From a virus (taxonomy: Duplodnaviria; Caudoviricetes), in IMG/VR virus record IMGVR_UViG_2974632701_000001, positions 10,676-74,675 of that record: a stretch of DNA of 64,000 nt. One strand, 5' to 3'. Of this stretch, positions 9,145 to 40,121 are shown piece by piece (the first letter of the stretch is position 1; every line of letters starts with the position of its first letter). Below the pieces are notes generated by a model, which saw only the letters and a list, made by a program, of their open reading frames with translations, searched no databases and was not told the origin of the DNA. The position numbers and the translations under genes are program-made.

Positions 9145-11732
9145 ATGCAAGTTCTTAACGGTGGTGACTTCGACCAGAAAAACGTACTGATCGGGGGGAC
9201 CGGAAAGACTGAGAGCTTCGGGGTCACAAATGATCCCGTGCTCATGGGCATGTTGTCCACTGGCCTCTACCAGAAGCCAATGCGAACCATGATCCAAGAG
9301 ACGATGTTCAATGCTTGGGATGCTCACCGCATGGGCAAGTGCCAAGACAAAGCCATCGACATCTACATCAACGATACCTCGGGCCTGATCATTCGTGACT
9401 ATGGTCCGGGTATCCACAAGAATGAGATTCATCCCATTTACTGCATCTATGGGAACTCGACCAAACGCAACAACGATGAACTGACAGGTGGTTTTGGACT
9501 TGGTTCCAAATCTCCTTATGCCTATGCAGACAGCTTCACGGTGACATCTCACCATGATGGCTTCAAAGGCATGTACATCATGAATCGTGTCTCTGAAGAA
9601 AACCAAGGTGGACCGGGACGTTCCTACTCCTGAGTCTGGGCTGGTAGTTACCATCCCTCTCAAGAACGACAATGACATGACTCGTGCCTACGAGTGCATC
9701 AAAGACATCCTCTATCTGTCTGGAATCAAAGCAAGAATTCACTTCAAGGACGAAGAACCTGAAGAGATCTTTGCTGATTCTATTCCTGCTGGTGAATGGA
9801 TTGTCGATGAAGAAAACCACAAAGGACAGCTTTTTGCTGTCTATGGTGGGGTTCGGTATGAGATCATCAACGATGATGCCTATGCAGATGAGTATCGTTT
9901 TGTTCGCAAAATGGCAAACCTTCTGGGCAATATGTACATCGGATTCAAGGCTTCGACTCTGACGCCTCTTCCGAGTCGTGAAGGTCTCAACCTGAACGAA
10001 CGTACTGTAGCTACCATCAAAAATCAGCTTGAGGTGATGGAAGAAAACTTCCGTCAGATGCTACTTCCAGTAACACGAGCAGTCTTGAACGAATCGTTCA
10101 AATCTCTCTGTGAATCTGGCATCGAACCCAAGTATCTTGTGGAAGCATGGTATCGTGTTGGTGATCGCAAATCTCTCAAAGAAATCACAGATGTTGGTCA
10201 TCCCATCATCAGTGCAGCGAAAGAGCAATGCTCTGAATCCATGAACCAATCCATGTGGAATAGTCTGTGTGAACTGGCTTTCACTCGGACCAGAGATGTC
10301 TACTCAATGATTGGTGGTGAGAAACTCAGCACCATGAAGTACATCATCTGGGCCAAGAAATTCCCCCAGCACACTCACTACAAAGACTATCTCATGGGTC
10401 GGATGTCTACTCGATCCAAGGTCTACAAGACTCCCTTTATGCACGAAGCTCCAGTCTCAATGGCTGAACTCATCACTGCAAAGCAAATCTGTGATGCAGC
10501 GTCAAACCAAGACACTGATATTCGAGTAGCATATCGTGACACTTGGGAACCTGTTTCCAACCGTCGTAAGGCTGGTAAACTTCAGGGTCTTTCGTACTCC
10601 AAACAGAAAATTGCTTCGGCTCTTCTCAAAGAGAACAAGCTCAAGTTTCCGGATGCGAAATATCCTGATCGTCTTTGGTTCAAGAAAGACGGTGAAGAGT
10701 TCCACGACGTGCTTCTCACTCGAACTGTGATTCTCGCCAAGACAATCACTGCTCTGAAGGAAACCCGATTCCAGTTTCAGGCCATGTTCACTGCAAACTA
10801 CCCAACAGTAAGTAATTACCACAACTTCCACAGAAGCAACTTTGAAGAGCAATACTACAATGCCAACCAATGTCCTGTGGCAGCCATTATCGTTCACCAA
10901 CGTAATGGAGGCTATGACAACGAATGGAGGCTATGACAACGCTCTCAAGGCTTTGTCTGACGCTGGGTACATGGTCTACGAAGCAGATGAACCAGAAGCT
11001 CGTACACGGACTGTAAAGCCTGTGGCAGCCAATGGTGTTATGGTTGCAAAAGAGGTCATCACCTATCCTCTGGTCAACCTGAGCAATGCTGATTGGGCTG
11101 ATTGGAACAACTCAGTCGAAAACCCTACCTGCTATATCTGTGTCACTGAACACAAGGTACGGCATGAGTATTCTTCTGACAAACCAAGTACCAGACTTGT
11201 TGGATGGGTGAGTGAAAATACTCCTCGATTCGTCATCCTGCACAACAAAGCTCGTGCAGGTCGTCTTGAAAAGAAGGACATCCCTTCTTTTGAAGTGAAG
11301 ATCCACCAACTGGTGGAAAAAATCCTTGCAGATCAGGACCGTGTAAATCGTATGGTTCTGCACAGCATCTTCAAAGACCATTCAGATCTTCCTTCCGAAC
11401 TGCGTGATCTTCCTGAAGTGCAGAAGTTCTTCAAGGTTCCCTATGTCAGAAACAGCCAAAAGGACGCTTTTGCTCGTGACATGAATGTGCTCGTTGAAAT
11501 CGAAAACATGCAGCGTTACGGCAATGACTGGGTACATCGTGACACAATTCAGTTGGTCAAAGACTCGATGAATGTGGCCCGAAATACCGACTCTGTTCTT
11601 TTGGTTCGTAAGATGACCAAAAAGACGAAACTCTTGAATGAGTATGAACTGAGAAACCACCTCTCTGGGCTTAAACCGGGAGAGGTTAAATGCTTCTCAG
11701 AAAAGCTCCTACGCTTCTTGCGTACTGTTTGA
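9145..11732 (+). pseudogene. rIIA: rIIA-like protein split over three frames
   Basis: N-terminal HSP90-like ATPase motifs (QETMFNAWDAH, IRDYGPGI, GGFGLGSK). Frame breaks at ~9617-9621 and at a 19-nt tandem duplication 10904-10941. Lies directly upstream of rIIB as in N4-like phages. Confidence 0.8.
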
Positions 11733-14149: not shown

Positions 14150-14539
14150 ATGATCTTCGTATTTGGTTCCAACAAATCAGGTGTCCATGGTGCTGGTGCA
14201 GCTAAAGTTGCATTTAAGCAACACGGAGCCAAATGGGGAATCGGTGAGGGCATAGTTGGAAACAGCTATGCTCTTCCCACCAAAGGATTCCACATTGAAA
14301 AAATGTCTCTTCTGGAGATTCAGTATTCTGTCAATCGCTTCATTGAGACTGCCGAATACTGGAAAGTCAGAGGAGCAGAGTTCCAAGTCACCCGTGTTGG
14401 GTGTGGTCTTGGTGGTCACAAAGATGCTGACATTGCTCCAATGTTCAGGACTGCCCCTGACAACTGTCTGTTCGATGAGTATTGGAAGCCTTGGCTCGAT
14501 ACTCATGAAGTGAAACGGAGATACTGGGGAACCTTCTGA
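14150..14539 (+). CDS. macro-domain-like protein
   Basis: IFVFGSN..G.HGAGAA...GA.WG.GEG..G.SYALPTK and VGCGLGG glycine loops resemble macro-fold ADP-ribose-binding loops. Confidence 0.6.
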   Translation: MIFVFGSNKSGVHGAGAAKVAFKQHGAKWGIGEGIVGNSYALPTKGFHIEKMSLLEIQYSVNRFIETAEYWKVRGAEFQVTRVGCGLGGHKDADIAPMFRTAPDNCLFDEYWKPWLDTHEVKRRYWGTF

Positions 14540-15084
14540 TGACCATTTACTATGCAGGGATAGGAAGCCGTGAGACACCCGAAGACGTATGCAGAAAAAT
14601 GTTTGCAGCAGGCAGGACAATGGCCAAGCTCGGATTCATTCTACGATCCGGGGGTGCTGACGGGGCAGATGCTGCTTTTGAATCAGGTGTGGCAAAAGCA
14701 GCTTCTGAACTCAATACCCACCTTGAATCTCTCGCAGAGATATATCTCCCATGGAAGGGGTTCAGGAAAAACCAGTCTCCTCTCTATGGTTCGTGCAAAC
14801 GAGCTAGACTCCTTGCAAAAGAGTTTCACCCTAACTGGGCGAATGTCTCATGTGCAGGACGCGATTTTCATGGACGAAATATGTACCAGATTCTCGGACG
14901 TGAACTGGACAGACCTTCTTCCTTCGTCCTGTGTTGGACAAAAGACGGAGCAATTACCGGAGGTACAGGCCAAGCTCTCCGAGTGGCTCAAGAATATGGC
15001 ATACCCATCCTCAATTTTGCATGTCATGATGACCAGTACATCAGTGATTTTATTCTCGGAGCAGCAGAAAGGATGCGAGGATGA
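14539..15084 (+). CDS. SLOG (DprA/Smf-like) family protein
   Basis: YAGIGSRETP, LRSGGADGADAAFE and GGTGQALRVA..YGIPI motifs of SLOG Rossmannoid domains. Confidence 0.75.
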   Translation: MTIYYAGIGSRETPEDVCRKMFAAGRTMAKLGFILRSGGADGADAAFESGVAKAASELNTHLESLAEIYLPWKGFRKNQSPLYGSCKRARLLAKEFHPNWANVSCAGRDFHGRNMYQILGRELDRPSSFVLCWTKDGAITGGTGQALRVAQEYGIPILNFACHDDQYISDFILGAAERMRG

Positions 15085-29222: not shown

Positions 29223-32200
29223 TTACTGACCCCCATTCATCAGGTTGATCCATGGGTTCAATTCAGGTGCATCAAAGAGCATCTCGAACCCTGTGGCATA
29301 GTCCAACCGACCTTCAGCAATCACTACCAAGATGTTGTCCGTGATTGGGCCACCAACATCGACCACTGAGTTGATAGCCAATGAACGAACCGGATTATCT
29401 CGCATCTGCTTTGCAGCAATCTTGAGAATACGGATCTTAAAGGCCATAAACCAAGTAAGACCATTCGACTCCAAACCGGAGCGAACACGACCCGGAAGCA
29501 CAGAGAAGTTCACGAACTCTTCGTTGATCATGGCTGATGCTACCTCAGCACTAAGTCCCTGAGAAATCAGGTGGTCGTAGTAAATAGACTTAGCGATGAA
29601 GTCACCATACTGAGTTGCTCGATTGAGCACCTGATACAGTTTCGTAGACTTTGAAACCAATCCCACCTTCACGATGTCAGTAGCACGCTCTGGCAGACGT
29701 TCAGACAGCTTCTCGATGTAATCACCAATCCGACCAGACGAGATGTCCACATCGAGATCAGTGATGCCTTCAGACAGGTTTTTGAACTGACCAGCTTCGA
29801 TCATCGGAGCAATAGACATCTGCTTGTTCAGATCCTGAAGAACCTGAATACGGTCTTGCAGAATTTGCTTTTGGTTATCGTTCCGAGCAATCTTCATCTT
29901 CTGCTGAAGATCAATAATCTTGGTTCGGTTCTGAATGAACTCCTCAGCTTCAGCCAGCTTTGCACGATACCCTTTGGTGATCTGTTTCACAGGTACACCA
30001 GCATTGGCCAACTGCATGACGTTGGCTTGCACGTTGGCTACAGGAACCACGAGAGACCGAACCACGATGATGTCCTTGGCAGTCGATACAGCCCCTTGCA
30101 GAGCCTCTTCACCAGTGGAAAGCCACCGCATAGCCTTACGACCCATGATCGCCTCAGTGGACGCCACGATAGCAGCCTGAAGTGGTTTCGGAATACGAGT
30201 CTTCCCTGACCACATATCAGTGATCGAAGGCTCACGATACCCAACGGCAAGGTTTACCATTGACCGTGGAACCATGAATCGACCTTCGAACTTCGATTCA
30301 ATGTAGTTCTTCGTAGATTGAGGGATCAGCTTCCATGATTCCTGATAGATCTTGTCTGAAGAACGCTTCATGTCTTCAAACTCAGCATCAGTCCCATTCG
30401 GACGCTTTTCCCACAGCTTATGAAGCTCATCAACCAGTTGCTTGTTGTACTGGTCAGCAAGGCTTTCTTCCACCTGACGACCAGCCCAAGCACCCAGCAT
30501 CACTGCAAGGTTCTCTTCACGACCCAAGTGAAGGTTCTGCATCTCTTCTGAGATCGACCGTTCAAACCCAAGAACAGAACCATCACCAGCAAACACTGGC
30601 ATCAGTGCTTCCTGTTCATTTTCCAGAACAGTATTTGGGTTCAGTTGGTTCTGAAGGATACGATCAACCGAAGAATCTCCAGTGATAAGACCAGCCACAG
30701 AATTACCCACAGTAAGACCAGTATTGGTATCCACACCCCGGTAGGTCATGGCTACATTCTGCATCACACCTTGTGAATATCCACCCTGACGACGGACAGT
30801 CGAGATGTAGTAAGACCGTGGGAAGATGGAATCCGTTTCACCCTCATAAGGGATATCCAGTTTCACATAACCCATCCGCTCACGAGCATCTTTGTTCGTG
30901 TCCAAGTCCACAATGATCTGGGTGTTCTTCCGACCTTCATTCGGAATGTAACCCTTGTATCCATTCAGACGAGCCTGTTCAGTGATACCCGGTTTGGCTT
31001 CTTCTGCTTCATTCAGACCCTGAATGTATGCCACCATAGAAGTCACACCATTAGGATCAGCCTGCCACAGTTGAACAACCTCTTCACGAGTCTGAGAATC
31101 CATTCGATCCAAAGCATAGACTGACACCAGTCGATCAATCTTGCTCACCATGTCCGGAGTACCTTCACCATCAAGGTTCTTCACGATGGCATAAGCATTC
31201 CGAACCAAGAGCTTACCAACAGACTGACCATTCATGAAGTCAGCCAGTTGCTTTGACTTGGCAATCACATCAGCCATAGCAGACCCTGAAAGAGTCTGAG
31301 CCAGATCTTGTTCAAGACGCTGGATCTCATTGCGACGAGTCGCACTCTCTTCAAGGAACTTCATGGTTTGACGCATGTTGTCGAGGTTCACCAGTGCTGA
31401 AAAGTCAGTCTTAGCCAGTGTATCAAACATAGCTTTCCACTGTTCTTTCGTGGGCGGATTGATGAACTCACGTTCTAGAATACCGGGAAGATCTTCACGG
31501 TAAGCCTGACGCATACCCGACACAGCAGCATTCACTTTGTTAAGCAAATCAACCACTTTCGAGTTTTGCTTATCAGTACCCACGATCTCTGAAACCATTT
31601 CCCGAATAGGAACGATAGACAGCACAGGCAGACCCATGTGAGTGATACGCTTAGTCGCCTCACCAGTCAGTTCCGTGTTCTTCTTGTCCAGCAGATTGGT
31701 TGCCAGAGTGACCGAAGACATCAGGAAAGGAATGACCTTTCCACGAGACTGAGCCTGAATGTCCTGATCCTTACGCAGCATCCAATCCGAAGTAGCTGAC
31801 AGTTTGCCAGACACAAAGTTGTCAGCAGCCGTCAAAGACTCCGTAACACGCTTCAGCAGACGGAACTCTTTCTCCTTGTCATGATCAATGATGATTTTGG
31901 CAACAGCATCCAGCACCTCTTGAGGAGCATTGCTTTCATTCAGAGACCCCATCAGCTTCTTCATAGAGAAAGATGCAGCACGAGTCATGAAGTCCACCAG
32001 AGACCCTTCCACCGAAGCCTCAGCCTCTGGTGCAGGGATCTGTTCCAGAACAGCCCGGAATTTCTTCGAAGTCTGGCTCAGAGCAAACAGCACAGCAGCA
32101 GCATCTGACGTACCTTCGTTCTCGATGGAACCAAAGGAATTCAGAACAGCAGAGTACGTCTGACGATCTTCAGGAGTCGAACCAAACATCTCAGGGGTCA

Positions 32201-35200
32201 TGTTCTCAACAATGTGCTGGAACACACGGGTCAGAGCAATCCGAGCCGTAGCATCCAGTTTCATGTTTGACAGCATGATACCGTAGATCGCCTTGAAGGT
32301 TGAACGATCCTTGGAGTTTGCCAGCAAACCACCCTGACGAAGATCATTGATGACCTTCTCAGCATTGTAGATATCCCGACCAGTCTTCTGCTTTGCAGGA
32401 CTATCCGTCACAAAGCTACGCATGTACGCTTTGAGGTTTTCAATCCAGTAGTCAGAATGGTTTTCAAACGGACCTGAAGTCTCATCACCCGGATCATCCG
32501 GAGGAGGAGTATTCCCGTTACCACCATCATCCACATTCGGTTCATTCAGAACACGAGTGTTGAAGACCACATGATCGAACATCGAAGCAGGCATTCCACC
32601 CAGCATCCGACGAAGCAAAGCCATAACCTTGCTTCCGAAGTTTGCAATGACAGAGGCTTGCTTTGCAGCAGTCCGAACACGGCTGTTCGTCAGAACATAG
32701 GCCATGAATTCGTTCACAGCAGCAGCCTGATTGACAGGATCGTTACGAGCCATACGACGAGCAATGGCAGCTTGAGCTTCATTCATGGCTTTCCCATCCG
32801 ATTGGATGTCCATGAATTCTTGCATTAGCACTTCCAAACGAGCCACAGCAGGATTGGTCACACCTTCATAGTGATTCAGCACCAGCCCATAGGTTGCAGC
32901 ATGAACCATCTCATGAAGCACTGACTCATTCGTATCCACGCTCATGAACATCACGTTGTTCTTGAAGTCGTAGTTCGAAGGAGCTTTCAGCACGACACCA
33001 TCATCAGGGAAGTTCTGTTGACGGTATTCGTTCAACTGATCCAGCGTACCGAAGATCACCGTTACATCACCCATCAGAGGCTTGAGGATCTCCACAGCCT
33101 TCTTCTGATCAGGGGTCAGGTTACGCATGTTATCCAGCAGAGCTTTGGCCGTGGTAAATTCCACAGGCTTTTTCACATCTTTTGGTTTCGTGTCGTTGTT
33201 CATCTCTTTCTCAATCCGATGGTTTACTTCAGAAAGAGTCCAAGTCTCCCCATCACGAGAGAAACCAACATCTGAACCGCCCATTTGATCGACAGACACA
33301 GCCATCTGCCGGAAGACTTTCTTCCGAGCACGGTTCTCTTTCAGACGCTTGGCCATTTCTGCTTGCAGATCTTCCGGCCCTTGGAAGAATTTCAAGGATT
33401 CCTTTTTGTTATCAGTCATCAGTTCAGCCCAGACATCATTCAGGATGTCCGAGTCCAGCTTATTAGACATAAACCCTTCGAAGTTCTGCACAGCCATGCC
33501 CAGAACATCTCGATCCCAAGACTTCAACACAGCCTCATTGATCTGAGGAGCATACTGTTTGATCTTGGAAACCGGAACGTCGATACCATCGAACACCGGA
33601 AGAACATCATTCGGTGCATTATCAGCACCAAAGATGAGGTTCATCATCATGGCATCCCCAGTACCAATCACAGCAAATGGAAGAGCACGAACTCCAACGT
33701 CATCAGGACGACGCATCCTTGCAGGAGTGACCAGCTTTTCATCAAAGTTCGAAGACAGACGAAGGTCGGTGAGTTTCTTATCGAAACCACCCACAGCCAA
33801 AGTCTGTTCATCAGATACGAAGATCGCACCCATCTGACTCAGACGATCTTCCAGTTCTTTGAAATACTTACGAGGAATCTCTCCCTTGTTTGGTTCACCT
33901 TTCTTGTTCCGCTTGATCGTACCTTCACGAGCCAGCTTCTCAGCCAGCAGATTGATCTCACGATCAAACAGCTTCTGAAGATACTTGGACTGAATGTTCG
34001 TAGACAGCACCAGCATATCATTCAGTTGTTCAATACGATGTCCCAGAACCTGACGAGTAGCATTCGTCAGAACCTTACCAACCGTAAACTGGATCGACTT
34101 CCGGAATGCTTCCACCTGATCATTTGAGAACACAAAGTTCTTGTCGAAACTGTTAGGCAGTTTCAGACCCAGAGTTTCCATATCCTTCAGAACACCCGGA
34201 TAGTAGTAGGTATCCCAATCTGCATTCTCTGGCATGTCCTGAAGTTTCTCATAGAACTCCAGCAGCATGTCATCAGCCACACCAATAGCCACGCCTTGAA
34301 CCCCAGAACCATAGTTTACCTTGGTCATTGGGTTCTTGGCAGTGTTACGGGTCATCCAGAAATCACCCGTAGTGGTGTCCATTTCGAAGTTACCAAAAGC
34401 CGAAGCCAGACGACCAGCAGCTTTCCGTTGCTCTTGTTGCCAAGGCTTCAGGAACTTCAGATCTCCAGTCATCATTTGATCACCCAACTGGGAAACCATC
34501 TCATAGAGATCTTTTTCCTTATTGGTGAAGAACTTGGTTACAGTCATTGCAGTGGTTCCAAGGAAGTAACCCACACGCTTGAAGTTGCCCCAGTCTTCAG
34601 GGGTCATCAAACCATGACCAAAGTTAATCATCATGTTGGCTGCACCATTGGTCAGGCCATCAAGCTCAAAGCTCAAAGCCGTCTCAAACGTGGCATCACC
34701 ACGTTCCATAGCCAGTTCACGAACTGCCACAGCCTCGATAGCAGCCAGCACAGCAGGTTCCACTTGACCCACTTCAGCAAGGAAAGCATCAGAGTCAAAC
34801 TCTCCACCTTCCAGCATAGTTTTTACCATATCCACAGCATTGCCATACTTCGTATTGAAGGTCTCAATGGCAGCCGGAAGATGAGTTGCATGGTCCTTCT
34901 TCTCTGCTTTGAACAGATCAGCTTGCTGCACCACACCCAGCCAGAATGCCTGAGTATCGTCAGCATCAGTCGTAGACAGCACTGACCGCTGAGGTGCCAC
35001 CACATACCGCATCAGCTTGTTGTTCTGCGGGTTTGGACCCTGCATCTGATGACGACCGACTTGCGTTACCCCAACCGGAAAGAAAACCTCTGAGGCTTGC
35101 TGTTCCATCATCCCATTTACGAGATCGGTAACTTCCAGCAGATCACGACGGACAGACGCATTCTTGCCCAGAACTGAACGCTTGAGCACAGGATGAGTCA

Positions 35201-38200
35201 CAGACGCAGGATCACGATAGCCCAGCATGATTGCAAGGTTATCTTCACCAATGGCTTCCAGCAGCCTTGCACGGCCTTCCTGCAAGCGATGAGGAATGTC
35301 CTGCATCCGACGCACAGCCATACGCTCCAGAACAGACATGATCCCTGTACCACGTCCCTTACGGACTGATACGGTTGGGATCTTGGAACCAATGCTGTAA
35401 GACTCACGAGATTCGTTGAAGATCGTTTCTCGAACAGTGTTCGAAATCCCTTCACCTTTAGCTCCAGCAATCCGTTTCTGATAGTCAGACATCTTCTCAG
35501 TGTTGACCAGAATCGTTGCAGCATCTTGCTGATTCGTTTCATTAGTCAGCTTCACACTGTCGATATCGATGATATCCATCTCAGCAAGAACCGTCAGGAT
35601 CTCCTTGGCGAAACCATGAGTGATACCTTCCAGATCATCGACACTGGATTCTTCATTCTCCTTGATGTGCCACAGACGCTTCAAATCATCAGCAATCGTA
35701 TCAGATAGCTGACTTGGTGGAATACCAAACAGAACCTTGTTCAGACCTTCCTCAGTCAGATCAAGTTTGTTTAGACCCATCTTTTCCAGCGTGTCATCCA
35801 GCTTACGGGGATCAGAAGCAGCAGCAGTTGCGATGAAATCCATCACTGCCAGAACCGCAAGGTTCAGCATGTTTTCATCATACCGTTCAGTTTCCGGATT
35901 CATCAGAGCACCAGCTTTGAATTTCCGGAACTCAACTCGACCATCTTTGATGTGCTGTGCAATGGTCTTGGTAATCTGACCATCTTTCACACGCATCTTC
36001 AGACGAGCATTCATACGCTGCACAAACTCAGGCAGCACTTCATTCATGATCGTCAGGTACTCACGGTTCATTTTGAAACCAGTACCAAACTTCTGCATGA
36101 AGTCTTCCAGACTGGTGACAACAGCATCACCAGTACGAGGTGCAAAGCTCTTGTTGAAAAGCTCCGTTACCTTCCGAATGAATCCGGATACGGGGGCGGT
36201 GTCTCCTCCCTCAGATTCTCCGGTGTCTCGCTCTCCGTTGGGTGCTTGAGTTTCTTCGCTGGATACTTCAGCGGCAGTTCCAGTTGTTTCGGTTCGGATG
36301 AGATCGCCATAAACTTCCTCCATAAAGGCAGCAGTGTATCCAAGTTCCCCACTGAATTCCTCAGTAGAGAACGCCATTTCCGTAGCCACTGCGAACAGTT
36401 CTGAAGCAATAGTTTCAGGATCTTTCCGAGTGAAAGCATACTCCAACCGATTGTTGAAATACCCACTCATCTTGCCACGCAGTGCATTCATTTCATTGAA
36501 GATCTGTCCACCCTTGTAAAACATCCGAGCAGATGAATACGGCCTGCCAACAAGATTGGCATGGTTATCAACCAGATGACCAGCTTCATGGATCAGGATC
36601 GCTTTACCCAGATCATTCAGAGTACCATCCGGATTGAAACCATCTTCCCGAATATGGATAGTCTGATCAGCAAAGAAAGCATGGCCAAGACCAGCAACCC
36701 GCATTGGTACAATACGGATTTGCTTGATGAATTTGTTCATCGTAGGCATCGTTGTCTTGATGAAGTCACGAGCATTACCCAGACGTTCACGGACAGTTTC
36801 ACGCATCCGAGACTTCTCAGCCTCAGTCATTTGAGCAACAACATCATCCCATTTGGTGCTTGAAGGGATAGGCTCATCGGAAACTATTTCCTCATTCGTC
36901 TCGACTTCAGAAGTCGCTGGCGCTCCTTCTTCCGTCTCGTCTCTTTCGGAATTACTTTCCTCTTCGACAGCCGTTGGACGTGCATCAATGTTCTGGTTCA
37001 CGATGGCAATCTGATCACCATTGAACACAATCACAATCGCTTCTGTCCCATTAGACAGAATGATCGCATCATGATTTCCGGCTTTGTAATCCATCTCCAG
37101 TTGACCACGTTTGGTCAGCCACTGGTTCTGAGGATCATCAGTCTCAACCAGCAGAGGATTTGTAGCACGGACATTCACAGACATCAGACGGGGATTGGAT
37201 TTGCCAATAGCGTACTCACGTCCCTGACCCTTACGAGTGGTCAGGAAGATACCATCCTTGGAGTCAGCAAACTGATCAAACTCAACCCCACCAGTCCCAT
37301 GATAGAAGACCATCACATTGTCATTGTCATCAGTGATGAAGCCAGTGTCAGTGCTGATATTCAGGTCTTCTTCTGTAGTCTGGTTCTGCTCCTCGGTTTC
37401 TGGCGAAACCTCGTCGTTGGCCGTTGGGGTTTGTGTCTCTTGGTTTGTTTGTTGGTTCTGCTCGTCAGAAGTTTCTTGGGAAACTTCCTCCTCGATACCC
37501 GTTGGTTGGGTATCAGGCTTCGCCAATTCAACTTTCTCCATCTTGGGAAATGAACCAAGAATCTCAGGGAATTCCTCACGCAGAGTGTTGAAAGCATCTA
37601 CCACAGCATTCTGGTCTTCAGCAACCTGTTGCGCGAATGCAACACTATTTGCGTTGTCCGGGGAATACCGAACACCTTCACGACGTACACCACGAACAGG
37701 ACTGTCAAAGTCCTTTAGGCGTCCACCACGCTTCCCTTCAGGAGTGATGTATCCATCAGCCAGAGACGCATTCAGAGCCTGCACTTTGTTCACCATGTGC
37801 TGGGCAAAGTTCTGCATGTCGGTCATGACATCGCTGACAGTCTGCACTCTTCCTTGTTGGTTGATGACGGTCCCTTCAGGGGACTGGATGCCAGTGAAAA
37901 TCTCTCGGACAAAATCGTTGATTGACCGTAGTTTCTTACCACCCTCAGACACCATGCCATCGGCAAAGATCTGACGGGAAACATCGGTGATGGTTTTCTC
38001 CTTCCCAGCCGGTCGGCCAGAAGCGGTAAGATTGACGTTTTCAGTCCGAGAGATTTGAACCTTTGCTTCAACATTCCGGTTCACAATACGAGCCAGCTTT
38101 GAAGCAGCTTTCATCAGCTTCGTATCTTCAGGTGAAATTTGTTCACCCGACTGTTCCAAGATCAGATCAGTAGCATCTGGATTCACAGCAGTAGGATTCA

Positions 38201-40121
38201 CTTTCGCTACATTGCGAACAGTGGTCACATCTGTAGGAGCACCCTCTTTATTCAGATCCAGATTGGTGGCTTTAGACACCACATTCTGAACCATTTTCGA
38301 AGAAAGAACCTTTCCAAACTCTTTCTGAGCCTGCTTAGGCAGACTTGTCACCATGCCTTGCAGCTTCTGGAATTGAGCAGCAGCATAGGCTGTATCAGCC
38401 TCAGTTGCTTTGAAGCCTTTGGATCCCATCTTCGCCACAATACCAGTGACGTTTTCAAAGACGTTGCGTGAACCACCAGCAACATCTGCCAGACCTTCAG
38501 ATGGGACTTCCACATCAGGAGTTGAGAAAGCAGTCTGAACACTGTCACGAAGCTGACCTTTGGCAGCTACTTCACGCAGAGATTCAGTAGCATTCACAGT
38601 AGCCTGAACCGACTCGACAACTTCTTTGTCAGTCGGACGATTGGTGTATTCAATGATTTCTTGTCCCACACGTCCTGCCAGTTTACTGGCTTGTTCTGCA
38701 CCAACAGAAACCACTGAACCAGCAGCTTCACGAACTGGACGAGTGACATCAGAAAAGACTTCAGCAGCACGAGAAACAGGTGAACCACCCAAGATCTCTT
38801 GACGCAGAGGATCATTGTACGTGGTTTCAGTGAACAGAGTATTGGCTGCATTCACAGCTTCATTGGCAGCCCCACGAGCAGTGTTTGGCGTAGCCATAAC
38901 ACCAGCAACACCCATACCTGCAATGGCACCCAGAGCAGCTTCTTCACCTACTCCATCAAGAGTACCACGACCAATCTGAGCATACTCTTCCACAGAAAGA
39001 TTTCGGTTGATGGTTCCAGATGCACCTTGACCAGCTTCTTCGATACCTTCACCAGCAATCGACAGAAGACCTTTGGTGACACCAACACCACGGAAACTAC
39101 CGATAGGCATAGCTTCAAACCGTGAGGTGATGAAACCAAGAGCAAGAGACGGTGCAATCTGACGAATAGCAGCAGTTTCAGCAGCCATACCAGCAAGCTG
39201 AAGTTGAGCATCTTCAGGACTGAAACCCTCAGCCAACAGAGCATTGTAGACCGAAGAAGTCTGTGCCAGTCGTTCCATAGGAATCGACATCACATCATTC
39301 ACAGTCTCAGCGTACACACCTGCAACTTCAGTCGTTGCTGCACCAGCAGAGATACCAGCAGCTTGTGCTGCACGTTGAGCCACAGTGTTCCGAATGAGAG
39401 CAGTCGATGCACCCTTGGCAATCAAACCACCTGCACCAGCCAGAGGCACTGACAGAGCCAGATCACCGATACCTTCAGAGATGATCTGCCCAGTCACATC
39501 AGGACTGTTCCATGCACGTTCAGCAGACTCGACAGCGTTACGTCCTTCACGACGTAGAGCAGCCATAAAAGGATCAGCACCTTCTTGAACTTCACGTTCA
39601 TAAGTTGCTTGGTTATCCATTGTGTCCAGTTCACCTTCGATCTGGAACAGACGAGTACGATCTTGAAGCTGAGTCGTCAGGTTATCCTGAAGGAATGATT
39701 CAACATTCGCATTGTGTTCACTGAGTATATCAGCAGTGGCTTGCTCACGAGGAATAGCCCCGTCAGTCATCCAATCAATCATGTACCCTGCACCAATACC
39801 AGCAAGGTTTCCAAAGGTACGATAAGCAGCACCAGCCGCTCCAGTTGCACTGTCACTGATCACTTCACCAGTTGAACGATCTCCACGATCAATACGCTCA
39901 ACCCGAGCACTCCCTTCACCCATACGCATGGCAGCACGATATACAGGATCTCCGTACTTCGCACGGATTTCCACATCATTGAGAGTAGCCATGTCTTGGA
40001 TGAGTTGATCACTGAAACCAGTGTTTCGTGTCCGAGCGACAGCAGCGGTATCCTGAAAGTTAGGATCACGAAGACGGGCAGCAATCATTTCAGATGCTAG
40101 GAGTTCGTCGCGTTCAGACAT
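29223..40121 (-). CDS. virion-encapsidated RNA polymerase (N4 gp50-like)
   Basis: 3632 aa; T7-like motifs FELDGLTNG (A), RNTAKNPMTKVNYG (B), PVFDGIDV (C); I saw no Cys in the translation, as expected for N4 vRNAP. Confidence 0.95.
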   Translation of the reverse strand: MSERDELLASEMIAARLRDPNFQDTAAVARTRNTGFSDQLIQDMATLNDVEIRAKYGDPVYRAAMRMGEGSARVERIDRGDRSTGEVISDSATGAAGAAYRTFGNLAGIGAGYMIDWMTDGAIPREQATADILSEHNANVESFLQDNLTTQLQDRTRLFQIEGELDTMDNQATYEREVQEGADPFMAALRREGRNAVESAERAWNSPDVTGQIISEGIGDLALSVPLAGAGGLIAKGASTALIRNTVAQRAAQAAGISAGAATTEVAGVYAETVNDVMSIPMERLAQTSSVYNALLAEGFSPEDAQLQLAGMAAETAAIRQIAPSLALGFITSRFEAMPIGSFRGVGVTKGLLSIAGEGIEEAGQGASGTINRNLSVEEYAQIGRGTLDGVGEEAALGAIAGMGVAGVMATPNTARGAANEAVNAANTLFTETTYNDPLRQEILGGSPVSRAAEVFSDVTRPVREAAGSVVSVGAEQASKLAGRVGQEIIEYTNRPTDKEVVESVQATVNATESLREVAAKGQLRDSVQTAFSTPDVEVPSEGLADVAGGSRNVFENVTGIVAKMGSKGFKATEADTAYAAAQFQKLQGMVTSLPKQAQKEFGKVLSSKMVQNVVSKATNLDLNKEGAPTDVTTVRNVAKVNPTAVNPDATDLILEQSGEQISPEDTKLMKAASKLARIVNRNVEAKVQISRTENVNLTASGRPAGKEKTITDVSRQIFADGMVSEGGKKLRSINDFVREIFTGIQSPEGTVINQQGRVQTVSDVMTDMQNFAQHMVNKVQALNASLADGYITPEGKRGGRLKDFDSPVRGVRREGVRYSPDNANSVAFAQQVAEDQNAVVDAFNTLREEFPEILGSFPKMEKVELAKPDTQPTGIEEEVSQETSDEQNQQTNQETQTPTANDEVSPETEEQNQTTEEDLNISTDTGFITDDNDNVMVFYHGTGGVEFDQFADSKDGIFLTTRKGQGREYAIGKSNPRLMSVNVRATNPLLVETDDPQNQWLTKRGQLEMDYKAGNHDAIILSNGTEAIVIVFNGDQIAIVNQNIDARPTAVEEESNSERDETEEGAPATSEVETNEEIVSDEPIPSSTKWDDVVAQMTEAEKSRMRETVRERLGNARDFIKTTMPTMNKFIKQIRIVPMRVAGLGHAFFADQTIHIREDGFNPDGTLNDLGKAILIHEAGHLVDNHANLVGRPYSSARMFYKGGQIFNEMNALRGKMSGYFNNRLEYAFTRKDPETIASELFAVATEMAFSTEEFSGELGYTAAFMEEVYGDLIRTETTGTAAEVSSEETQAPNGERDTGESEGGDTAPVSGFIRKVTELFNKSFAPRTGDAVVTSLEDFMQKFGTGFKMNREYLTIMNEVLPEFVQRMNARLKMRVKDGQITKTIAQHIKDGRVEFRKFKAGALMNPETERYDENMLNLAVLAVMDFIATAAASDPRKLDDTLEKMGLNKLDLTEEGLNKVLFGIPPSQLSDTIADDLKRLWHIKENEESSVDDLEGITHGFAKEILTVLAEMDIIDIDSVKLTNETNQQDAATILVNTEKMSDYQKRIAGAKGEGISNTVRETIFNESRESYSIGSKIPTVSVRKGRGTGIMSVLERMAVRRMQDIPHRLQEGRARLLEAIGEDNLAIMLGYRDPASVTHPVLKRSVLGKNASVRRDLLEVTDLVNGMMEQQASEVFFPVGVTQVGRHQMQGPNPQNNKLMRYVVAPQRSVLSTTDADDTQAFWLGVVQQADLFKAEKKDHATHLPAAIETFNTKYGNAVDMVKTMLEGGEFDSDAFLAEVGQVEPAVLAAIEAVAVRELAMERGDATFETALSFELDGLTNGAANMMINFGHGLMTPEDWGNFKRVGYFLGTTAMTVTKFFTNKEKDLYEMVSQLGDQMMTGDLKFLKPWQQEQRKAAGRLASAFGNFEMDTTTGDFWMTRNTAKNPMTKVNYGSGVQGVAIGVADDMLLEFYEKLQDMPENADWDTYYYPGVLKDMETLGLKLPNSFDKNFVFSNDQVEAFRKSIQFTVGKVLTNATRQVLGHRIEQLNDMLVLSTNIQSKYLQKLFDREINLLAEKLAREGTIKRNKKGEPNKGEIPRKYFKELEDRLSQMGAIFVSDEQTLAVGGFDKKLTDLRLSSNFDEKLVTPARMRRPDDVGVRALPFAVIGTGDAMMMNLIFGADNAPNDVLPVFDGIDVPVSKIKQYAPQINEAVLKSWDRDVLGMAVQNFEGFMSNKLDSDILNDVWAELMTDNKKESLKFFQGPEDLQAEMAKRLKENRARKKVFRQMAVSVDQMGGSDVGFSRDGETWTLSEVNHRIEKEMNNDTKPKDVKKPVEFTTAKALLDNMRNLTPDQKKAVEILKPLMGDVTVIFGTLDQLNEYRQQNFPDDGVVLKAPSNYDFKNNVMFMSVDTNESVLHEMVHAATYGLVLNHYEGVTNPAVARLEVLMQEFMDIQSDGKAMNEAQAAIARRMARNDPVNQAAAVNEFMAYVLTNSRVRTAAKQASVIANFGSKVMALLRRMLGGMPASMFDHVVFNTRVLNEPNVDDGGNGNTPPPDDPGDETSGPFENHSDYWIENLKAYMRSFVTDSPAKQKTGRDIYNAEKVINDLRQGGLLANSKDRSTFKAIYGIMLSNMKLDATARIALTRVFQHIVENMTPEMFGSTPEDRQTYSAVLNSFGSIENEGTSDAAAVLFALSQTSKKFRAVLEQIPAPEAEASVEGSLVDFMTRAASFSMKKLMGSLNESNAPQEVLDAVAKIIIDHDKEKEFRLLKRVTESLTAADNFVSGKLSATSDWMLRKDQDIQAQSRGKVIPFLMSSVTLATNLLDKKNTELTGEATKRITHMGLPVLSIVPIREMVSEIVGTDKQNSKVVDLLNKVNAAVSGMRQAYREDLPGILEREFINPPTKEQWKAMFDTLAKTDFSALVNLDNMRQTMKFLEESATRRNEIQRLEQDLAQTLSGSAMADVIAKSKQLADFMNGQSVGKLLVRNAYAIVKNLDGEGTPDMVSKIDRLVSVYALDRMDSQTREEVVQLWQADPNGVTSMVAYIQGLNEAEEAKPGITEQARLNGYKGYIPNEGRKNTQIIVDLDTNKDARERMGYVKLDIPYEGETDSIFPRSYYISTVRRQGGYSQGVMQNVAMTYRGVDTNTGLTVGNSVAGLITGDSSVDRILQNQLNPNTVLENEQEALMPVFAGDGSVLGFERSISEEMQNLHLGREENLAVMLGAWAGRQVEESLADQYNKQLVDELHKLWEKRPNGTDAEFEDMKRSSDKIYQESWKLIPQSTKNYIESKFEGRFMVPRSMVNLAVGYREPSITDMWSGKTRIPKPLQAAIVASTEAIMGRKAMRWLSTGEEALQGAVSTAKDIIVVRSLVVPVANVQANVMQLANAGVPVKQITKGYRAKLAEAEEFIQNRTKIIDLQQKMKIARNDNQKQILQDRIQVLQDLNKQMSIAPMIEAGQFKNLSEGITDLDVDISSGRIGDYIEKLSERLPERATDIVKVGLVSKSTKLYQVLNRATQYGDFIAKSIYYDHLISQGLSAEVASAMINEEFVNFSVLPGRVRSGLESNGLTWFMAFKIRILKIAAKQMRDNPVRSLAINSVVDVGGPITDNILVVIAEGRLDYATGFEMLFDAPELNPWINLMNGGQ

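Follow-up and report, generated by a model that had tools for sequence, protein, structure and literature searches.

What is a domain of some 120 residues, set between two acidic linkers, doing in the middle of a phage RNA polymerase that is itself part of the virion? The question is raised by a stretch of 64,000 nucleotides (positions 10,676 to 74,675 of the IMG/VR record IMGVR_UViG_2974632701_000001; hereafter the window), which covers 64 kb of the 74,675-bp record of an N4-like phage. Its largest gene, on the minus strand at positions 29223-40121, encodes the virion RNA polymerase (vRNAP). A sequence-only reading had proposed that residues 925-1042 of this protein form an ADP-ribosyltransferase (ART) domain of the ART-PolyVal family, delivered at injection in the manner of T4 Alt. 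We report here that profile and model searches agree on an ART fold, that the predicted active site differs in part from the one first put forward, and that the domain sits in a slot whose content varies among related phages.

An ADP-ribosyltransferase fold within the virion RNA polymerase

The curated Pfam model PF18760 (ART-PolyVal, cut-off 31.2 bits) matched an isolated 161-aa segment at 44.1 bits, with an E-value of 4.4e-11, and the whole vRNAP at 34.8 bits. No other Pfam family matched the segment at E<=0.1. A six-frame scan of the complete record with the same model recovered one copy only, at 42.4 bits.

An AlphaFold2 (AF2) model of the domain was built from an alignment of just 7 sequences, because scans of viral contigs (1 locus with the single sequence, 6 with the alignment) and of metagenomes (1 locus, already among those) yielded so few loci. 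The model has the ART strand order, with a mean local confidence (pLDDT) of 84.8 and a predicted template modelling score (pTM) of 0.80. In a Foldseek search of the Protein Data Bank (PDB), the top matches listed were all tankyrase PARP domains or diphtheria toxin. A fold search independent of Foldseek, run against 48,161 chains, placed PARP2 first (Z 7.6, root-mean-square deviation (rmsd) 3.6 over 107 residues), and its top 40 rows were nearly all members of the ART superfamily: PARP1/2/3/4/10/13/15, exotoxin A, cholix, MbcT, ParT, RES toxins and Arr. Among viral models, a BFVD search returned the vRNAP of roseophage RD-1410W1-01 (TMq 0.85), followed by dozens of annotated PolyVal ADP-ribosyltransferases. 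When the sequences of the PDB were searched with a profile made from the ART alignment, no relative came up, the sole match being Hfq at E 0.96, which is noise; therefore no close relative of the domain has been solved.

From the profile match and the predicted fold taken together, we conclude that residues ~925-1045 are a genuine ADP-ribosyltransferase-fold domain of the ART-PolyVal or 'N4-like ART' group, within the H-Y-[EDQ] clade. The identity proposed for the domain is borne out by the curated hidden Markov model, by the PARP, tankyrase and diphtheria-toxin matches of the predicted fold and by the viral matches in BFVD; structure prediction, suggested by the same reading as a check, gave an ART fold. 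Its coordinates, 36995-37350, were right as to place and one base out at each end (36996-37349 when set to codons). The strings that it quoted from residues 925-1042 (VMVFYHGT, FDQF, GIFLTT, YA, LMSVNVRATNPL, GNHDAIIL, EAIVIVF and DQI) are exact, and the composition of the flanking segments, residues 861-924 and 1046-1089, agrees with its description of acidic linkers (4-8 D/E and <=2 K/R per 20 residues).

The fusion of an ART to a vRNAP has been known since 2017 from the sister roseophage RPP1, whose vRNAP (CBX87992.1) is the published prototype of the family and for which a T4-Alt-like role was proposed (Iyer et al. 2017, PMC5512222). In a survey of 2022 (Iyer et al. 2022, PMC9503650) the family is named 'N4-like' or 'N4-ART' and appears as one of the commonest of viruses' ARTs. 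RPP1 is among the homologues that were aligned with the window domain. The sequence-only reading was in this respect a correct rediscovery, and the observations on the modular slot and on cassette swapping reported below are modest additions to a known fusion. The domain goes unmentioned in the genome papers on DSS3phi2 and EE36phi1 (Zhao et al. 2009) and on R7L.

In the same fold search the ART model also matched PDB entry 9k3a, chain B (Z 6.6, rmsd 4.5 over 111 residues), which belongs to the cyanophage A4 pre-ejectosome, a podophage ejection-protein complex. The paper on 9k3a makes no mention of an ART-like domain, and chain B, a further ejection protein, may have an unrecognised ART fold or may match by chance.

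The carrier protein

Sequence comparison identifies the carrier as an N4-type vRNAP. It matches phrog_2206 (virion RNA polymerase) at 3194 bits, and Pfam places N4_RNAP_helical at residues 1909-1968 and vRNAP_dom at residues 2144-2281. Among public relatives, Sulfitobacter phage EE36phi1 is the nearest, with 91% amino-acid identity across the vRNAP gene. The published vRNAP lengths are 3632 aa for DSS3phi2 and 3786 aa for EE36phi1 (Zhao et al. 2009); judging from the match in length, 3632 aa, the window phage is probably DSS3phi2, which infects Ruegeria pomeroyi DSS-3. The features of the gene are listed in Table 1.

Table 1. Features of the vRNAP gene in the window, in order along the protein
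Feature	Residues	Window positions	Strand	Evidence or remark
vRNAP gene, 3632 aa	1-3632	29223..40121	-	open reading frame list and translation, PHROG 2206, Pfam
Conserved N-terminal region	1-860	37542..40121	-	colinear BLASTP blocks
Acidic/polar linker 1	861-924	37350..37541	-	PTGIEEE at 873; looser PTANDEV at 899
ART-PolyVal ('N4-like ART') domain	925-1045	36987..37349	-	Pfam, AF2 model, Foldseek, BFVD
His941 codon (YHGT), predicted NAD-binding/catalytic His of strand 1	941	37299..37301	-	invariant in aligned vRNAP ARTs; model strand 25-29
Phe959 codon (GIFLTT), strand-2 aromatic at the family Tyr position	959	37245..37247	-	model strand 44-47
Asp1018 codon (NHDAIIL), acidic residue at start of strand 5	1018	37068..37070	-	model residue 104, just before strand 105-109
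Acidic linker 2	1046-1089	36855..36986	-	PTAVEEE at 1049; site of EE36phi1 extra module
Zincin metallopeptidase module MPT1	1090-1275	36297..36854	-	motif, AF2 model, fold search
T7-like RNA polymerase core	1320-2380	32982..36164	-	Pfam vRNAP_dom, N4_RNAP_helical
HEMVH of C-terminal (second) zincin module	2403-2407	32901..32915	-	motif scan

The N-terminal region is 31-90% identical to that of all Rhodovirinae vRNAPs and 26% identical to that of N4, and the polymerase core is 24-92% identical to the cores of other vRNAPs. The N-terminal domain of N4 gp50 is said to be needed for genome injection (Lenneman & Rothman-Denes 2015, citing unpublished data). The C-terminal zincin module is also found in N4 gp50, where it has been described (Iyer et al. 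2017, PMC5512222). With its two zincin modules, the carrier conforms to the large, multidomain 'polyvalent' type of protein expected for the ART-PolyVal family; its packaging in the virion is extrapolated from N4. The window vRNAP holds no cysteine in its 3632 residues, and neither do 21 other vRNAPs of 3156-4082 aa, the inserted ART and zincin modules included. All 22 vRNAPs checked are cysteine-free, which extends an observation of Zhao et al. 2009.

The predicted active site

The signature published for the family is a His in strand 1, a Tyr in strand 2 and an Asp in strand 5 (Iyer et al. 2017, PMC5512222). The corresponding residues of the window domain were placed by their secondary-structure position in the model, and compared across three sets of aligned sequences: six isolate vRNAPs, 25 database representatives and ten further vRNAPs. 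The predicted catalytic set is His941, Phe959 and Asp1018, all three of which are invariant in the 6 isolate vRNAPs and in the 10 further, metagenomic ones. The pattern proposed earlier, HGT followed by F-x-[ST] and a late-strand Glu, needs correction on this last point: the Glu in question, that of EAIVIVF, lies one strand beyond that of Asp1018 and is an Asp in EE36phi1. At the strand-2 position, Phe is found in every vRNAP version, including the prototype RPP1, and Tyr or Phe in other ART-PolyVal proteins. A second aromatic residue, Y970 (Tyr, Phe or His in relatives), follows 11 residues past F959, in the next helix, a spacing which we take to recall the Y-X10-Y of PARPs and diphtheria toxin.

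Distribution of the domain and content of the variable slot

Using tblastn, the domain was detected in at least 12 of the 180 phage records with a vRNAP match, the method giving a lower bound; all 12 are Rhodovirinae and represent seven phages. With the local profile and the Pfam model, no ART was found in the vRNAP or elsewhere in the genome of V13, vB_SupP_AX, DFL12phi1, phiCB2047-B and N4. Comparison with N4 and roseophage vRNAPs, another check suggested by the sequence-only reading, has accordingly returned presence in some Rhodovirinae and absence in others and in N4. The domain is accessory, since phages of the same host occur with and without it: this is so for D. shibae DFL12, and for R. 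pomeroyi DSS-3 if the window phage is DSS3phi2.

The ART lies in a slot of variable content, which follows the conserved N-terminal region (residues 1-860) and precedes the polymerase core (from ~1320); acidic linkers set its modules apart. An ART and a zincin module together occupy it in the window phage, EE36phi1, R7L, DS-1410Ws-06 and RPP1; an ART only in RD-1410W1-01 and several metagenomic vRNAPs; a zincin module only in V13, AX and DFL12phi1; and neither of the two in phiCB2047-B and N4. The window ART belongs to a sub-lineage with shorter loops, common to EE36phi1 and metagenomic vRNAPs, with identities of 56-98%.

The zincin module of the slot, MPT1, is the N-terminal of the two zincin copies and is not present in N4 or phiCB2047-B. 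Its HEAGH lies at residues 1178-1182 (window positions 36576-36590), and a conserved Glu follows downstream in SELFAV. In the MPT1 alignment H-E-x-x-H-x-x-D is invariant and the downstream Glu nearly so. Pfam gave no match on either zincin module, and the N-terminal one was recognised by its fold: the AF2 model (pLDDT 87.8) had its best matches in anthrax lethal factor (Z 10.1), PPEP-2 (Z 9.6) and PPEP-3 (Z 8.8). The likeness to lethal factor, to the M34-like Pro-Pro endopeptidases and to the 'MPTase' modules of polyvalent proteins extends to HExxH, the downstream Glu and the fold; the C-terminal MPTase of N4 vRNAP has likewise been linked to lethal factor (Iyer et al. 2017, PMC5512222).

EE36phi1 has in addition a 154-aa module after its ART (L001:10496-10948, vRNAP residues ~1065-1215), which is not in the window phage. 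A metagenomic relative whose ART is 98% identical to that of the window, P0029, carries a 29%-identical version of this module before the ART, at residues 926-1050. Modules of this kind, of ~130-150 aa, are here called 'module X'. For that of EE36phi1, searches gave no Pfam match, no PHROG match and no usable Atlas lead (best 0.87).

Selection on the domain and exchange of the cassette

Compared with EE36phi1, at a dS of about 0.4-0.5, the dN/dS of the ART is 0.065, the lowest of all segments, for 0.096 in the polymerase core and 0.119, with a dS of about 0.42, in the whole vRNAP. The ART is the part of the vRNAP under the strongest purifying selection. Among vRNAPs with this type of ART, the domain is more conserved than the core in 4 of 5 (identities of ART and core of 81 and 71%, 78 and 55%, 60 and 42%, and 63 and 42%), the exception being P0034, with 77% for the ART and 81% for the core. 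A side observation concerns the linker that joins the zincin module to the core (residues 1276-1319, positions 36165-36296, minus strand), which differs from EE36phi1 by 13 amino acids in 44 codons, with no synonymous differences (dN 0.16, dS 0), too small a sample to call positive selection.

The vRNAP of R7L is 74-76% identical to that of the window phage everywhere, with 74-75% in the core, except in the ART (residues ~930-1060), where identity falls to about 45%. Between R7L and DS-1410Ws-06, by contrast, the ART is 79% identical and the core 48%. A sliding comparison places the switch points of R7L in the linkers on both sides of the domain. A similar swap pattern was seen in P0033, this time for the zincin module. 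These identity profiles indicate that phage lineages have exchanged the ART as a cassette.

The linkers may bear a trace of such exchanges. The ART is flanked by three direct repeats of 19 nt that are 79-84% identical (36959-36977, 37409-37427 and 37487-37505); those at 36959 and 37487 encode PT[AG][IV][DE]E, and the one at 37409 the looser PTANDE. A slightly wider motif, PT[AGV][IV][DE]E, was counted 14 times in ten Rhodovirinae vRNAPs, always within the slot, for 0.01 occurrence in shuffled slots; as the ten proteins are related, the count reflects conservation and not independent recurrence. The junction in the window phage resembles a join across the two motif copies that flank the extra module of EE36phi1. 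The motif may mark a junction of recombination, or else a site of processing. A more ambitious scheme would combine the two, with a recombination-driven effector slot in which the ART, the lethal-factor-like zincin and module X come and go, change their order and pass between phage lineages, and with junctions marked by a PT[AG][IV][DE]E that would also serve as the zincin processing site, freeing an ART of ~14 kDa in the host; we regard this scheme, taken as a whole, as rather unlikely.

Possible function of a presumably injected domain

By analogy with T4 Alt, we consider it fairly probable that the injected ART acts on host targets. An N4 virion contains about four copies of its vRNAP, which enter the cell before the genome does (Lenneman & Rothman-Denes 2015; Zhao et al. 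2009), and the roseophage vRNAP is colinear with that of N4. Since the N4 polymerase goes in ahead of the DNA, the ART would enter the host cytoplasm with its vRNAP before any phage gene expression. There, with host NAD+ as the donor, it would mono-ADP-ribosylate at least one kind of host macromolecule, proteins of transcription or defence being the likeliest, and so favour infection; candidate targets would be RNA polymerase, SSB or gyrase, which are needed by N4 early transcription, or defence proteins. A catalytic effector makes sense in this setting because so few vRNAP molecules would be injected.

Several points weigh against this proposal. Taken one by one, the fold-search scores are middling (Z <= 7.6; TM 0.41-0.46), and the fold assignment is carried by the consistency of the matches across the list, not by single Z scores. 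The strand-2 Tyr is replaced by Phe, a conservative change that is probably tolerated. Injection of the vRNAP and exposure of the ART in the cytoplasm are extrapolated from N4 to the roseophage. The domain is dispensable, an optional cassette. Finally, no biochemical or genetic test of any ART-PolyVal member was found in the literature.

An active domain could also have another kind of substrate, and modify nucleic acid, like DarT, or a small molecule, like Arr, or else act as an NAD+ hydrolase. The catalytic acid is an Asp and not a Glu, and the active site of Arr is H-Y-D; the fold matches include Arr itself, a rifampicin ADP-ribosyltransferase (Z 5.3), together with the toxins MbcT (Z 6.3) and RES (Z 5.5), of the NAD+-phosphorylase or NADase type; and the ART is attached to an enzyme whose work involves DNA and nascent RNA. 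However, it is PARPs and tankyrases that match the structure best, not Arr or DarT, the family has been grouped with the protein-modifying PARPs and with diphtheria and cholix toxins (Iyer et al. 2017, PMC5512222), and about four molecules per cell are few for a bulk depletion of NAD+. We hold a non-protein substrate or an NADase activity to be unlikely, though less so than the two possibilities considered next. One of these is that the domain has lost catalysis altogether and is kept for its fold, as a spacer or a docking module that serves when the vRNAP is packaged or ejected. The Phe found at the strand-2 Tyr position in all vRNAP copies would fit a pseudo-enzyme, as would the optional nature of the domain among close relatives, and pseudo-PARP domains do exist (TASOR, Z 5.1 in the fold search). 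A spacer, however, has no need of the His and Asp that are invariant across vRNAP ARTs only 29-46% identical, and both the dN/dS of 0.065, below that of the polymerase core, and the higher conservation of the ART than of the core in 4 of 5 relatives weigh against this reading; loss of catalysis appears to us quite unlikely.

Lastly, the substrate could belong to the phage itself and be either a protein (the vRNAP or some other component of the virion) or a nucleic acid (the genome or the ends of transcripts), modified while virions assemble or as transcription begins. The domain forms one polypeptide with a polymerase and adjoins a peptidase module, and auto-modification is common among ARTs. 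However, phages with the same polymerase do without an ART, and the phage has no Macro or ARH hydrolase to undo the modification: a genome-wide scan for a phage-encoded ADP-ribose eraser gave no match to Pfam Macro or ADP_ribosyl_GH. We think self-modification very unlikely, and retain a host target as the preferred reading.

As regards erasers, a pair of open reading frames at 14150-15081 (plus strand) was looked at separately. The first, of 129 aa (14150-14536), has no Pfam match and falls in PHROG 2072, of unknown function; a macrodomain identity for it is unsupported, given this absence and the empty genome-wide Macro scan. The second belongs to PHROG 768, DprA-like, with a weak SLOG match.

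Relation to known systems and significance

The closest described system is the ART of the RPP1 vRNAP, also from a member of the Rhodovirinae. The two share family, carrier, position (between the N-terminal region and the core, with a zincin module after the ART) and the invariant His, Phe and Asp; the RPP1 domain is, however, only about 27-29% identical to that of the window, and an extra helical segment precedes it. The best solved matches, the H-Y-E ARTs of PARPs, tankyrases and diphtheria toxin, have in common with the window domain a strand-1 His, a strand-2 aromatic and an acidic residue where strand 5 begins. They differ from it by an identity of 10-17%; the first Tyr is replaced by Phe in the window domain, and the strand-5 catalytic Glu of the H-Y-E type is absent from it, its equivalent being Asp1018. 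Compared to PARPs, the window ART is also much smaller (~120 aa), lacks the regulatory domains and has a helix in place of the PARP acceptor loop.

With T4 Alt, which is packaged in the head and injected with the DNA, what is shared is the proposed logic: a virion-borne ART reaches the host before gene expression and acts on proteins there, RNA polymerase for one. Alt is a protein on its own, with no polymerase attached, and its activity and targets are experimental, whereas those of the window ART are predicted. The Alt/VIP2 family belongs to the R-S-E clade, with an active site of Arg, Ser-Thr-Ser and Glu, against H-Y/F-D in the window domain (Iyer et al. 2017, PMC5512222), and because Alt belongs to that clade, the resemblance is a functional analogy only. 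Membership of the window domain in the Alt/VIP2 group was rejected, its active site being H/F/D and not R-S-E, and no Pfam match to exotoxin-type ART families was found.

The idea of an injected ART being already in the literature, the value of the present analysis is practical, as it provides a well-defined experimental target. The phage, probably DSS3phi2, and its host R. pomeroyi DSS-3 can be cultivated, and same-host relatives exist that lack the ART (V13, DFL12phi1) or carry a swapped one (R7L). With H941 and D1018 defined as the residues to mutate, a first experimental test of an ART-PolyVal domain should be straightforward. If the domain is active, N4-like roseophages would supply an NAD+-dependent modifying enzyme along with the polymerase that they bring, ahead of all phage gene expression; and if the proposal holds true, the T4 Alt strategy would have a second, independent example in phages that are abundant in the sea.

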